Assembly (NCBI GenBank): GCA_030587475.2
Contig: JAUQYZ020000219.1
Coordinates: 1 to 15,709 of the forward strand
Reading direction: 5' to 3'
DNA length: 15,709 nucleotides
Source of the DNA: Candidatus Sigynarchaeum calidifontis
GTDB taxonomy: Archaea; Asgardarchaeota; Lokiarchaeia; Sigyniarchaeales; Sigyniarchaeaceae
The first letter of the stretch is position 1. Each line of letters opens with the position of its first letter. The notes below the pieces were generated by a model that worked only from the letters and a program-made list of their open reading frames with translations, searched no databases and had not been told where the DNA came from. The translations under genes were made by a program, and so were the position numbers. Shown here one piece after another: positions 2,801 through 8,578 of this stretch.

Positions 2801-2837
2801 GGGCTATTCCCTTATTTCAGTTCCTGATCGAAACTTG

Positions 2838-3125
2838 TCATTCATTGCGGATGAAGCGAGCGAGCAAGGTTTCGGCTGTCGGCCTCGCCGTGAAGGTGCA
2901 TTGATCGGGGATGCAGCCCTTGCATTCTCCAGTGCTTTTAAAGGGGAGCAAGGCGGAGATTTTTTTTACGGCAGCGGGATGCTGCGCGATGAAGATCCGC
3001 TCGTCCTTCACCAGCGGCGTTTGTTTGAGCACGTTCGCGTATCTCGATAGCTTGAAGGCGTCATCATAGGCGAACGCATTTTTAAAGACGCCCGGTTGGT
3101 CGATCGGGATGGAAAACTTGACCGT
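2838..3125 (-). CDS. Small hypothetical protein or gene remnant (~95 aa), start uncertain
   Basis: Frame is open from 3167 to the stop at 2838 with coding-like codons (TVKFSIPIDQPGVFKNAFAYDDAFKLSRYANVLKQTPLVKDERIF...CKGCIPDQC...). No in-frame ATG. GTG at 3032, ACG at 3125, out-of-frame ATG at 3136. Confidence 0.4.
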   Translation of the reverse strand, partial: TVKFSIPIDQPGVFKNAFAYDDAFKLSRYANVLKQTPLVKDERIFIAQHPAAVKKISALLPFKSTGECKGCIPDQCTFTARPTAETLLARFIRNE

Positions 3126-3184
3126 GTGACTACCATGGTTATCTTCACGAACGATAATTTCATCGCTTCATCTTCACAAAATAG

Positions 3185-3266
3185 AGCCAGCTGTGGGACT
3201 TGCACCCACGGTACCTTTCGGCAACGGCTCTGCAGGCCGTCCCCTTAGCTGCTTGGGTAAGCTGGC
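3185..3266 (-). tRNA. tRNA-Cys(GCA), atypical with long variable arm, no encoded CCA
   Basis: Minus strand folds as GCCAGCT/AGCTGGC acceptor plus U73; D-arm CCC-AAGCAGCTAA-GGG; anticodon arm ACGGC-CTGCAGA-GCCGT; variable region TGCC-GAAA-GGTA-CC; T-arm GTGGG-TGCAAGT-CCCAC. Confidence 0.92.
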
Positions 3267-3531: not shown

Positions 3532-4536
3532 ATGGCACAGAAAAAGATACCGCCAGCGAAAAAGCGGAAGAATCCGTACGTGGCGGGTGTTGCAGCACTT
3601 AATTTCAAGCCCGAACAAGATTGGGATGTAGATGAGGCTATGGAGATTTATGCCAGGGCTAAATTTCCGTTCGAGGTCGATAGGATCTTCTTCGAGGATT
3701 GCATCAAAGGGATGCAGCAGCTGCCTGGTAACTCTGTAGACCTGGTAATTGCCGACCCACCATTCGGGATTGATTTCGACGGGCGAGGATCGCAATACAA
3801 CCGCAAGACCGATCTCGTCGTGGCAGGTTACAAGGAAATCGAGGCGAGCTACGACCAGTTCACCCTCGCGTGGATATCGGAACTGCCCCGTCTCATGAAA
3901 GACACGGCATCCGCGTACATCTTCTCTGGATGGACAAACTTGAAGGATGTCCTCGTTGCCGTGGACAAAGCGAACCTCACGGTCATCAACCATATCATCT
4001 GGAAATACCAGTTCGGCGTTTTCACCCAGCGGAAGTTCGTGACGAGCCATTATCACGTCTTGTTCCTCGTGAAAAACCCAGAAAAGTATTACTTTAACAA
4101 GATCGAGCACTACCCGCTGGATATCTGGGACATCCCGAGGACATACCGGCCTGGCCAGCAGAAAAACGGCACGAAGCTCCCCGAGAACGTGGTGTTTCGT
4201 TGCATCGATTTCAGCTCGAAACCGGGCGATCTCGTGCTCGACCCGTTCATGGGGAATGGCACGTCGGCTGCATGTGCCAAGGCAAAATTCCGGCATTTCA
4301 TCGGTTTCGAGTTAAACAAGAATTTACAAGAAATCCTAGACGAGAACATCAAGGCCGTGCATGTTGGCGAGAGCTACGTCCCGTACCATACCATGGTGCC
4401 GCCCGCCGAGACACTCGCCGAGAAATATCCCGCCGTGAAGAAGATCCTCGACCGCAAGCAAGTTGCAGCTAGCGGCGGATCGAAAGAGGGGAATCAAAGG
4501 GAACGTACGCAAGCCCCGCTGGATGAATTCATATAA
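3532..4536 (+). CDS. Orphan site-specific DNA methyltransferase (N4-C/N6-A, beta class) with C-terminal PIP-like motif
   Basis: Motif IV DPPF precedes motif I LDPFMGNGTS (beta order). Likely start is ATG 3532 (MAQKK). No adjacent endonuclease gene. Ends QAPLDEFI*. Confidence 0.92.
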   Translation: MAQKKIPPAKKRKNPYVAGVAALNFKPEQDWDVDEAMEIYARAKFPFEVDRIFFEDCIKGMQQLPGNSVDLVIADPPFGIDFDGRGSQYNRKTDLVVAGYKEIEASYDQFTLAWISELPRLMKDTASAYIFSGWTNLKDVLVAVDKANLTVINHIIWKYQFGVFTQRKFVTSHYHVLFLVKNPEKYYFNKIEHYPLDIWDIPRTYRPGQQKNGTKLPENVVFRCIDFSSKPGDLVLDPFMGNGTSAACAKAKFRHFIGFELNKNLQEILDENIKAVHVGESYVPYHTMVPPAETLAEKYPAVKKILDRKQVAASGGSKEGNQRERTQAPLDEFI

Positions 4537-4616: not shown

Positions 4617-7568
4617 ATGGCAAGCTTAATTCCGTTCCAGATCGGGCTCAAGCTCATGGGCCTGGCATTCGGCATATCGAAAAAGCTTCGCAAGGAGATC
4701 TATAATCCTTCTATAAACTATGCCTTCAACAATCGCATCCAGATCAGGACCATGGACGGCACTGCCAACATCTGGATCGAGTTCAAGAATGGTAAGATGC
4801 GGTCTGGTACCGGTCCCATCGATCACCCCGATCTCGTGCTCGAATATAGCAGCAAGGACATCATGGCCAACGCGATCAAGTACACGCCGGACATCAGCCT
4901 CGACTTGCTCCTGTCTGGCGACCTCGAATTCGTGGGCAACATGGCCACGTTGGGCAAGTTCTCCTACCTCACGACCATCTTCCCGAAAAAAGTCAAGCGG
5001 CCCCTCTCACCTTCCTTCCCGCCGCAGACACGCATCACGGAGGAGCAAGCGGCTATTAAAAAAATAGACAACGAGGTGCTTGGCCGGCAAGTCGACGCGG
5101 TAAAGTACCTCGCGGATCCCTATCTCGGGAAGCTCTCGATCTCGGACTTCCCGTGGTTGCTGGAGCGAAAAAATCGATTTTTCACGGAACGGGCCGAGGT
5201 TTGCACGGAGCGTGCCAAGAACCTCACGGACTTCTTCGTGGCCGAGGGTTTCGAAAACAGGAAGGACGGGCAACCGTGGGATGCATCGCTCCGCAACGGC
5301 CTTGCCTTGAAGCACGTGCTCGCGATGAAAGCTCCCGTCATACACGAAGGCGACTTGCTTCCGGGCTCGACGACCTCCAAGCGCCTCGGCGTGCAGTTGT
5401 TCCCCGAGTTCGGCGCCGTCATGCTCTGGCCCGAGCTCCACACGGTTCATGCCCGCCCCCTCAACCCGTACATCATCTCTGAGGATGACAAGGCGATCTT
5501 GAACGAATACGTGTACCCGTTCTGGATCGACCGGAACATCCGCGAGTACACGCGCAAGAAATATGGCAACGCGCTCTGCCAGCGCATCGACGACAAGTTC
5601 GCGTATTACTTCATGTGGAAAACGCAAGCGATTTCCCACACGATCCCGAATTGGAGCACGCTCCTTTCCAAGGGGATCGGGGGCATCATCGCCGACATCG
5701 ACGAAAAGGCAGCGGGAGCCAAGGACGGCGACGGCCGGGCTGCATTTTACGCTGGCGCGAAAGCAGCGCTCGAAGGCATACTTGCATACACTAGGAACTT
5801 GCACAAGGAGGCGCAGCGGCAAGTCGACGAGTTGCAAGCCAGGAACGACCCTGCTCTAGCCGGCGCGATAGAAAACCTGTACAATATTCTTCACATGCTC
5901 GACGTGGTTCCCGAGCATCCTGCGAGATCGTTCCGCGAGGCCATCACGGCGATCTGGATCGTCTGGGTGGCCTTGCATAACGAAAATATGAACGCGGGCC
6001 TCTCCCTCGGCCGCCTCGACCAGGTGCTCTACCCGTATTTCGAGCATGATATGAAAATCGCCAGCAGTCTCGCCGCTCGTGAACTAGCCATCAAGGAGGC
6101 TATCACGTTGATCGGGGCATTCTACTTGAAATGCGGCGACCACCTGCCGCTCGTGCCGAACGTGGGGAACAAGCTCTTCGGTGGCAGCTCCTCCGACCAG
6201 GCACTTACCCTTGGCGGCATCACGCCGTCTGGCGAGAACGCTGTCAACGACCTCACCTACATGTTCTTGAAGGTTACCGAGATGCTCTCGATCCGTGACC
6301 CGAACGTCAACGCCCGGTACCACGTGGACAAGAACTCGCCCGAGTACTTGCGGCGGCTGCTGGAGGTCAACATCAACACGACGGCCACGCCTTCCATCCA
6401 CAACGACAAGGTCATGATCGACACGCTCGTGTCCCGCGGCTTCGCGCTCGAGGACGCGCGTGACTGGGCTGCCACGGGCTGCGTCGAGCCGACAATGATC
6501 GGCCGCCACTTCGGGCACACGAACTGCATGCTCTGCAACCTCGTCGCGCCGCTCGAGGTGCTCATGAACGGTGGCCGCCACCCGCGTTTCCACTACCCGA
6601 TCAACGAGAACCTCACCCCCGCCTTCACGGCAGCGAACTTTCCGACCTTTGACGCGCTGCTCGGGGGATACAAGTCCCAGCTCGCCTTCCTCATTGCAAA
6701 ATCCATCGAAATCAACAACATGTACGGCACCGTCCACCAGGAGATCAAGCCGACCCCGCTGCTTTCGAGCCTCATCGACGGGGCGATCGAGAAGGGCAAG
6801 GACGTCGTGCACGGCAGCGCCAGGTATAACAGCTCGGGTGTTGCCATGGTCGCACTCGTCGATGTCGTCGATTCGCTCATGGCCCTGAAGAAAGTCGTGT
6901 ACGAGTGGAAGAAGATCGATCTCGACCAGTTCAAGGTCGTGCTCGAGCGCGACTTCACGGGCGAGGGCGACAAGGCCATCCTCGAGCACATCAAGCGGGT
7001 TCCCAAGTTTGGCTCCAACGACCCCGAGGTCAACAAGCTGGCGAAAGAGCTCATCGCATTCATCAATGAAGAGTATGCACGTGCTAAGAACTATCGTGGT
7101 GGTAATTATCTCGTCGGCTTCTGGTCAATGTCGAATCACACGGCTTTTGGAAAGCTTTCAGGAACGATGCCAAGCGGCCGGCTTCGCGGAAAGGCGTTCA
7201 CCCCTGGCATCACGCCAGCCCCGGGCTCGTCGGACCAGCTGCTCGATAACATCAAGACCGTGGCATCGCTAGATGCCAAGCTGTTTTCCAACAACATTGC
7301 TTTCAACGTGAAGCTGGTGCCAAGTGGTGGCGACACCCACGAGCAAACACTCGATCATTTCTACGATTATTCTCGGAGTTATTTCGATCTCGGCGGGCTC
7401 CAGATGCAATTCAACGTGGTCACGACCGCCATGATGCGGGACGCGATGCTCCACCCGGAGAACTACCGGTGGCTCATGGTTCGCATCTCCGGTTACAACG
7501 CCTATTTCACCGAGCTGAACAAGGACATGCAGATCGAGCTCATCGAGCGCATGGAATTCAAGGCGTGA
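4617..7568 (+). CDS. Glycyl radical enzyme (PFL-like, eliminase-type GCVE loop) with N-terminal SCP2-like domain
   Basis: Gly-radical finger LMVRISGYNA (Gly959) and Cys loop ATGCVEPT (Cys622). SLGRLDQ and GRLRGKAFTPG motifs. Residues ~25-120 (RIQIRTMDGTANIWIEFKNGK...PDLVLEY...LLSGDLEFVGNM) resemble an SCP2 sterol/lipid-binding fold. Confidence 0.93.
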   Translation: MASLIPFQIGLKLMGLAFGISKKLRKEIYNPSINYAFNNRIQIRTMDGTANIWIEFKNGKMRSGTGPIDHPDLVLEYSSKDIMANAIKYTPDISLDLLLSGDLEFVGNMATLGKFSYLTTIFPKKVKRPLSPSFPPQTRITEEQAAIKKIDNEVLGRQVDAVKYLADPYLGKLSISDFPWLLERKNRFFTERAEVCTERAKNLTDFFVAEGFENRKDGQPWDASLRNGLALKHVLAMKAPVIHEGDLLPGSTTSKRLGVQLFPEFGAVMLWPELHTVHARPLNPYIISEDDKAILNEYVYPFWIDRNIREYTRKKYGNALCQRIDDKFAYYFMWKTQAISHTIPNWSTLLSKGIGGIIADIDEKAAGAKDGDGRAAFYAGAKAALEGILAYTRNLHKEAQRQVDELQARNDPALAGAIENLYNILHMLDVVPEHPARSFREAITAIWIVWVALHNENMNAGLSLGRLDQVLYPYFEHDMKIASSLAARELAIKEAITLIGAFYLKCGDHLPLVPNVGNKLFGGSSSDQALTLGGITPSGENAVNDLTYMFLKVTEMLSIRDPNVNARYHVDKNSPEYLRRLLEVNINTTATPSIHNDKVMIDTLVSRGFALEDARDWAATGCVEPTMIGRHFGHTNCMLCNLVAPLEVLMNGGRHPRFHYPINENLTPAFTAANFPTFDALLGGYKSQLAFLIAKSIEINNMYGTVHQEIKPTPLLSSLIDGAIEKGKDVVHGSARYNSSGVAMVALVDVVDSLMALKKVVYEWKKIDLDQFKVVLERDFTGEGDKAILEHIKRVPKFGSNDPEVNKLAKELIAFINEEYARAKNYRGGNYLVGFWSMSNHTAFGKLSGTMPSGRLRGKAFTPGITPAPGSSDQLLDNIKTVASLDAKLFSNNIAFNVKLVPSGGDTHEQTLDHFYDYSRSYFDLGGLQMQFNVVTTAMMRDAMLHPENYRWLMVRISGYNAYFTELNKDMQIELIERMEFKA

Positions 7569-7612
7569 CCGCGCCCGGCCTTTTTCACGTAAACAACTAC
7601 GCGAGGTCGAGA

Positions 7613-8578
7613 ATGGTGGGCGATACCGGCACCCCGTTGATCTGCGACATCAAGCAGAACTCGCTCGACGATGGACCCGGCATCCGCACGGTCATCTTCT
7701 TTAAAGGCTGCCCCTTGTCTTGTAGCTGGTGCCAGAACCCGGAAGCCAAGGAAATGGCGGATCAACTCGTCGTGCAAGCCGCGAAATGCATTGAATGCAA
7801 GGATTGCGTGGATTGCCCGTCCAAGGCAATCTTGAAGGGCCCGCCCGTCCAGGTCGACCGTGCGAGGTGCGACTTGTGCTTCAAGTGCGTCGACGCGTGC
7901 CCCGCCGGGGTGTTCAAGCACGCGGGCACGCCCGCCGACCTCGAGGCCATCATCAAGCTCGCGCGGGAGAACAAGGTCTTCTACCGCACGAGCGGCGGGG
8001 GAATCACGCTGTCAGGCGGCGAGCCGCTCCTGTTCCCTCGCTTCGTGCTCGCCCTCGTCCAGCGGCTCGAGGCCGAGGGCATCAACGTCGTCCTGGAGAC
8101 CTGCGGATGTGTCCCCCTCTCGCCGGACGTCCTTGCCACAATCCAGCACGTCGTCTTGGTCTATTACGACATGAAGCTGGCCGATCCCACGCTTCACCAG
8201 CAGCACTGCGGGGTGAAAAACGATCTCGTCTTGAAAAACTTGAAGCGATTAATCGAGGAACGCATCGTGCACCTCCCGGAGAGGCGGGAGGCGATCGATT
8301 TCAAGAAATACACGTACGACAAGCCATTGCTCGTCCCGCGGATCCCTCTTGTTCCGGGTATCACGGACGACCCCGGAAACCTCTCGGCCATCGCATCAAT
8401 TCTCAAGGATCTCGGTGTCAAGCTCATCGACGCCCTCCCGTACAATCCGCTCTGGGTTGATAAGGCGAAAACTCTCGGATTCGCTTCTCCTAGCGCGATG
8501 AAAAGCTGGATGTCAAAGGAACAGCTCGCCCGTGTCCGTGCAGCGCTCGGGGGGTTCCAATTCGAGCGGTTCAAGTGA
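7613..8578 (+). CDS. Glycyl-radical enzyme activating protein (radical SAM with ferredoxin-like insert)
   Basis: DGPGIRTVIFFKGCPLSCSWCQNPE (CxxxCxxC), GGGITLSGGEPL, insert CIECKDCVDCP...CDLCFKCVDACP. GAGGT at 7603-7607 precedes ATG 7613. Confidence 0.95.
   Translation: MVGDTGTPLICDIKQNSLDDGPGIRTVIFFKGCPLSCSWCQNPEAKEMADQLVVQAAKCIECKDCVDCPSKAILKGPPVQVDRARCDLCFKCVDACPAGVFKHAGTPADLEAIIKLARENKVFYRTSGGGITLSGGEPLLFPRFVLALVQRLEAEGINVVLETCGCVPLSPDVLATIQHVVLVYYDMKLADPTLHQQHCGVKNDLVLKNLKRLIEERIVHLPERREAIDFKKYTYDKPLLVPRIPLVPGITDDPGNLSAIASILKDLGVKLIDALPYNPLWVDKAKTLGFASPSAMKSWMSKEQLARVRAALGGFQFERFK

Follow-up and report, generated by a model that had tools for sequence, protein, structure and literature searches.

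A solitary DNA methyltransferase of a Lokiarchaeial archaeon ends in a PCNA-docking-like peptide and belongs to a family with a candidate restriction partner

In prokaryotes, the ability of DNA methylases to keep pace with the replication fork is usually credited to enzyme abundance. In Caulobacter, cell-cycle expression and proteolysis govern CcrM, for which no clamp tether is known. The contact of DNMT1 with PCNA brings an approximately two-fold gain in methylation and is dispensable (PMC1934996). Among archaea, Anton and Roberts placed the persistent orphan AGCT groups HG11, HG16 and HG19 under the m4C profile b2c (PMC10609329), and a review by MacNeill mentions a methylase only as co-purifying with NucS (PMC4929162). 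Our literature search, which covered few subscription papers, found no paper on a clamp-bound restriction-modification (R-M) or orphan methylase in prokaryotes, and none on PIP-like tails of Asgard methylases. The enzyme and the tail described below are both of known kinds; their combination did not turn up in the literature searched.

We analyzed a stretch of 15,709 nucleotides (the window) from Candidatus Sigynarchaeum calidifontis, contig JAUQYZ020000219.1 of assembly GCA_030587475.2. The features that concern the methyltransferase gene are:

3184-3266, minus strand: tRNA-Cys(GCA), divergent upstream neighbor; context, not seen beside the scanned orthologues
3532-4536, plus strand: gene for a beta-class N6A/N4C DNA methyltransferase of 334 aa, PF01555; intact open reading frame from ATG (3532) to TAA (4536)
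3556-3666, plus strand: family-specific N-terminal extension, about residues 9-45, predicted as a basic patch and two helices (alignment, model)
3754-3765, plus strand: catalytic motif IV, DPPF, invariant (alignment)
4240-4263, plus strand: SAM-binding motif I, DPFMGNGT (alignment)
4366-4470, plus strand: helical C-terminal extension spanning roughly residues 279-313, conserved (alignment, model)
4471-4509, plus strand: predicted disordered polar linker (model), pairwise identity about 15% between close relatives that have the tail
4510-4533, plus strand: PIP-box-like QAPLDEFI at the extreme C-terminus (independent tail matrix, complex prediction)

The protein is a SAM-dependent amino-methyltransferase of the beta class. 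A profile search matched it to PF01555 above the curated cut-off (E=1e-34), and motif IV precedes motif I, which is the beta order; the two motifs show little or no variation across 35 aligned homologues. The predicted structure is confident over the core and the two family-specific extensions, while residues 318-334 have pLDDT below 50, with a short helix at 330-333. The N-terminal extension is kept in full-length members of the family and missing in short relatives of about 250 aa. Four such relatives (L014, L015, L448 and L449) lack both extensions and carry a strong PIP-like motif right after the catalytic core. A preliminary description of this locus had read a helical extension, a polar linker and a terminal QAPLDEFI behind the catalytic domain, and translation and alignment bear out all three.

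Among solved structures, its closest relatives are two m6A enzymes, CcrM (6pbd) and M.BceJIV (8urk), with a sequence E of 3e-29 and a Foldseek E of 2e-19 at 28% identity. The window protein does not belong to the CcrM family proper, scoring only 118 bits against a family cut-off of 830 bits (NF050803). Judged from the DPPF motif and these matches, m6A is more likely than m4C as its product; the assignment is tempered because DPPY enzymes can make m4C, as M.Sbo13I probably does (PMC2890505). The core had earlier been likened to the archaeal AGCT-type m4C orphans. Indirect comparison lends this likeness no support: Lokiarchaeum B-35 encodes a 57%-identical orthologue (L138), yet by our count of columns in the table text it appears in no groups but HG3 and HG12, those for GATC and CGCG (PMC10609329), and the best matches of the window enzyme are m6A enzymes. 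Word counts in the host genome revealed no avoided 4-base palindrome that stands out (AGCT 1.05, GATC 1.00), and such counts cannot be assigned to the window enzyme, because the genome holds more than 20 other N6/N4 methylase genes.

We scored the tail with a matrix built from 68 FEN1, NreA and Dpo4 tails of other Lokiarchaeia, containing neither methylases nor host sequences. QAPLDEFI reaches 11.6 bits and ranks 8th among 3,935 predicted host genes (our own gene calls, making ranks approximate), in the company of FEN1, NreA, Dpo4, a second PolB and DP2. Only 0.04% of internal pseudo-tails score as high. The C-terminal PIP-like tail reported earlier is thus real. Its terminal Ile had been called non-canonical, which is correct against the general consensus Q-x-x-(L/I/M)-x-x-aromatic-aromatic but not within the lineage: Ile occupies position 8 in 10 of the 68 reference PIPs, host Dpo4 likewise ends in F-I, and FEN1 alone has a fully canonical C-terminal PIP in this host. 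The doubt about Ile-8 is dropped for this reason. The odd residue is the Pro at position 3, found in none of the 68 references. The tail matches the lineage's own PIP pattern, and it is terminal and predicted to be disordered (pLDDT below 50). PIP-like C-terminal tails are present in the host on FEN1, PolB, PolD DP2, Dpo4, NreA, RNase HII and DUF72 proteins. Measured against these, the sequence looks like a genuine PCNA-docking peptide.

The host genome encodes a single PCNA with the PIP-pocket motifs present, and one PCNA per genome is likewise the rule. The host protein (L038:943-1860) bears an acidic C-terminal extension of about 35 residues, longer than in most of the order. In complex prediction, the tail/enzyme scored 0.60 with host PCNA versus 0.02 for the best control, a result the tool rates as weak, with contact agreement of at least 64% and partner pLDDT of at least 45. 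Among 80 solved pairs 58 attained the tool's mark, as did 2 of 110 mismatched pairs; only seven of the solved pairs but both mismatched pairs did so at a score of 0.60 or below. The pass may reflect model memory, because PIP-PCNA complexes have already been solved. We judge that the tail probably binds host PCNA.

Across the family the tail is labile. At the 99th-percentile matrix threshold it is found on 29 of the 120 closest homologues and on 7 of 80 orthologues among GTDB species, and most homologues end a few residues past the conserved last helix. On a tree of 184 catalytic cores (FastTree) the tail state changes at least 21 times, gain and loss not being separable. Nine close tail-bearing relatives are 78-100% identical at motif positions 4, 5 and 7 (L, D and F) and 15% identical in the linker, although the rows were anchored on the motif, which overstates the difference. 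Retention of the terminal motif despite linker divergence, as had been expected, holds for the motif core in the close clade and fails across the orthologues. In the nearest homologue (83% identical) the Gln is gone and the protein ends in Arg, which points to weak selection on the tail. The tail is missing from complete orthologues at 74-75% identity, and no out-of-frame motif remnant was found downstream of two tail-less orthologues. Searches of plasmid and phage collections returned only distant matches, at about 35% identity or less.

Such lability raises the alternative that the tail is a decaying relic or a weak look-alike which does not bind PCNA, on an ordinary leftover R-M methylase. 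Its loss or degeneration in close relatives and the Pro at position 3 point this way, as does the fact that the 99th-percentile threshold is also cleared by about 1.6% of the remaining host genes. The rank of the tail and the persistence of its L-D-x-F core beside a diverging linker argue against it, as does an enrichment of such tails on methylases that repeats in independent genomes. We consider this alternative unlikely.

The enrichment was computed with the independent matrix and repeated in other genomes, not with patterns derived from host methylase tails. The 99th-percentile threshold is passed by 6 of the host's 23 N6/N4 methylases, one of them a doubtful case, as opposed to 62 of its 3,912 other genes (p=2e-6). 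For other Lokiarchaeia the figures are 14 of 95 methylases and 5 of 221 neighboring genes, kin among them not being independent, and the tailed methylases are spread over unrelated DPPF and SPPY clusters. The tail is therefore not special to the window enzyme, as several unrelated host methylases carry ends that are PIP-like in sequence. None of 26 methylases in four complete Asgard genomes matched stricter tail patterns, suggesting that the PIP-tail habit depends on lineage. One host contig (C213:18970-25048) encodes a methylase whose PIP-like motif stops short of the C-terminus by about 12 residues, beside a methylase-like open reading frame with a PIP-like motif near the N-terminus. A conserved 278-aa DPPY methylase is found in 18 genomes of one Lokiarchaeia family (L194-L211); 16 of the 18 end in a degenerate PIP-like peptide devoid of Gln, mostly below the matrix threshold. 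By their PIP-like tails, two DUF72 proteins, a DUF4130 protein and a DEAD/DEAH-family helicase are candidate further PCNA clients (host contigs C222, C146, C181 and C155; L034, L041, L045 and L043).

We then found that the family has a partner. An unannotated protein of 220-250 aa adjoins the family methylase in 9 of 80 GTDB loci. It is encoded in 10 of 251 Asgard genomes, beside a family methylase in all ten. On sampled contigs of other assemblies, six of six homologues lie directly beside an N6/N4 methylase, four of these methylases being 54-63% identical to the window enzyme and two matching more weakly. The protein has 355 homologues (for example L097:3259-3930), no sequence match in Pfam, PADLOC or PDB, and no match in the plasmid collection. 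Its conserved acidic and lysine residues follow a PD-(D/E)xK pattern, and its language-model neighbors are the ThaI and NspV families. Foldseek alone returned no match for its model (pLDDT 96) at E 0.001, and in a wide structural search the top eleven matches were all Type II restriction enzymes, with SwaI (Z 10.3, rmsd 3.6, 151 aligned) ahead of SfiI (9.6), BglI (8.6) and EcoRV (8.4). Based on predicted fold and gene pairing, it is a candidate new Type II restriction enzyme with putative nuclease activity. The partner is broken or split at four loci (L095, L124, L150 and L394), and among the copies that are split or hold stops is one in Heimdallarchaeum endolithica PR6; these copies show how solitary methylases arise. 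Five of 120 partner proteins carry PIP-like tails themselves. At two further loci, a protein of about 400 aa with an endonuclease-III-type Fe-S motif adjoins the family methylase in place of the nuclease (L098:4973-6163 and L112:2376-3596), and the very edge of a host contig (C15:2-253) holds the 3' end of a homologue (63% over 84 aa).

Nuclease-paired copies are tailed as well. The comparison covers 115 family loci of known context. At the 95th-percentile threshold, 10 of 18 paired copies have PIP-like ends, compared with 11 of 97 solitary ones; at the 99th, the counts are 5 of 18 and 10 of 97. Phylogenetically independent pairs show the same direction (4.3 vs 0.5 of 9), which is not significant (sign test, median p 0.22). 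It is safe to say that, as read from these termini, the tail is no mark of orphan status.

In the host the methylase is solitary. It lies downstream of the tRNA-Cys gene and a GDSL hydrolase and upstream of a glycyl radical enzyme, and the earlier observation that no restriction enzyme neighbors it stands: none is encoded beside the gene, and the partner profile has no match in the window or in the assembled genome (89% complete, 269 contigs). The copies of close relatives are likewise solitary, and in the host clade the gene neighborhood is different every time. The window has no Rfam match. A look-up of sequencing runs returned none for this locus, which bears in neither direction on its expression. 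The glycyl radical enzyme (4617-7568, 983 aa) has an extra N-terminal region and is followed by a radical SAM activase (7469-8578, Pfam). Just downstream of tRNA-Cys lies a protein-like open frame of about 105 codons (2835-3165, minus strand) with no ATG, GTG or TTG start at its 5' end, possibly a pseudogene or a gene with an unusual start.

It is conceivable that the enzyme is no orphan, its restriction partner being encoded elsewhere or in unassembled DNA, and that the tether keeps the cell from cutting its own DNA behind the fork. The incomplete, fragmented assembly and the tendency of tails to accompany pairing leave room for this, and the endonuclease-III-like protein beside two family members, with a homologue ending at a host contig edge, offers a possible partner. 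However, the PD-(D/E)xK protein was found neither in the host nor in about 60 Lokiarchaeia genomes of the phylum sample, and wherever it does occur it adjoins the methylase. We hold a hidden partner to be improbable.

The preliminary description had proposed a DNMT1-like maintenance system, in which a domesticated orphan serves an epigenetic or cell-cycle role with the PCNA tether as an integral part. Solitary copies here and in close relatives fit such a role, and all four host-family genomes, few as they are, encode a family member. Over the phylum the family is present in 97 of 251 Asgard genomes, and it is near-universal and mostly solitary in Thorarchaeia and Heimdallarchaeaceae (56 of 59 and 23 of 26 genomes). 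These two Asgard families exceed the level used to call an orphan persistent, 75% of a taxon with five or more genomes, and archaea are known to harbor persistent orphan methylases (PMC10609329). Only 5 of 54 genomes have a member in the largest family of the host's order. Yet the most persistent clades have no tail. It is absent from a Thorarchaeia clade of 39 rows in which gene order is conserved and from all 20 solitary Heimdallarchaeaceae copies examined. At Thorarchaeia loci (L102, L108 and others), the tail-less orthologue has NYN-domain and ferredoxin genes upstream and a gelsolin-domain gene two genes downstream. The shifting neighborhood in the host clade, the tails on nuclease-paired copies, the lack of DNMT1-type regulatory domains and the many other methylase genes of the host also speak against a maintenance system. 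With tails this scarce and paired copies tailed too, the proposal of a dedicated epigenetic or cell-cycle system is not sustained, and we regard it as improbable. Two findings named in advance as counting against it, an unconserved tail and a cognate endonuclease, have in part emerged at the family level; in the assembled host genome itself no partner was found.

We favor, with a probability of roughly 0.6, the reading that the enzyme is a methylase of R-M origin whose optional clamp tether hastens the remethylation of newly made DNA. The mainly Asgard family would exist as two-gene Type II R-M systems or, more often, as solitary methylases after nuclease decay, and the window copy may descend from a nuclease-bearing ancestor. 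The PIP box of the disordered tail would dock weakly and transiently on molecules of the host's only PCNA that remain behind the fork. Docking would raise the enzyme concentration there, the site on the new strand would be methylated sooner, and the time spent half-marked would shorten. For a paired methylase the tether would lower the risk of self-cleavage, while for a solitary one it would add modestly to efficiency and could be lost. The tether would thus be an optional accessory, useful with or without a partner, that many Lokiarchaeia methylases gain and lose. A broader version, in which Asgard archaea routinely tether methyltransferases by PIP motifs that originated in R-M systems as protection from the nuclease, and some orphans including the window copy now keep up a regulatory mark in step with the fork, in parallel to DNMT1-PCNA and within the prokaryotic lineage nearest to eukaryotes, appears rather unlikely.

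This analysis adds a candidate partner nuclease family and persistent orphan clades that lack the tail. The family offers natural comparisons of tail versus no tail and of paired versus orphan copies, and the cutting site of the partner nuclease would reveal the methylase target. Eukaryote-style epigenetic maintenance in Asgard archaea is not demonstrated by these results.

Several described systems share parts of this arrangement. The archaeal PIP clients FEN1, PolB, PolD DP2, RNase HII, NreA and NucS (PMC4929162) have, as here, a Q-x-x-L-D-x-F-hydrophobic motif ending a disordered tail, and host Dpo4 and NreA show the same pattern as the window methyltransferase. In contrast, no DNA methyltransferase is among the clients described (PMC4929162), and the window motif is labile whereas those of FEN1 and NreA are not. 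Caulobacter CcrM and Burkholderia M.BceJIV share fold and motif order with the window enzyme, which differs from CcrM in its N- and C-terminal extensions. Like HG11, HG16 and HG19 (PMC10609329), the window enzyme is beta-class, solitary and archaeal; those groups fall under the m4C b2c profile and do not include B-35, which has an orthologue of the window enzyme, whereas the best matches of the window enzyme are m6A enzymes. As in Type IIP pairs with a nuclease of the EcoRV/SwaI branch, relatives of the window enzyme form adjacent two-gene pairs with a protein of about 220-250 aa and predicted PD-(D/E)xK fold, which differs in having no Pfam, PADLOC or PDB sequence match and was not found in the host genome. 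DNMT1 belongs to a different class, being a C5 enzyme, and carries an N-terminal PIP together with regulatory domains; its tether is analogous to this one, not homologous. The likeness is one of principle only, a transient clamp tether raising methylation efficiency (PMC1934996), and the modest, dispensable contribution of the DNMT1 contact fits the optional tail described here.
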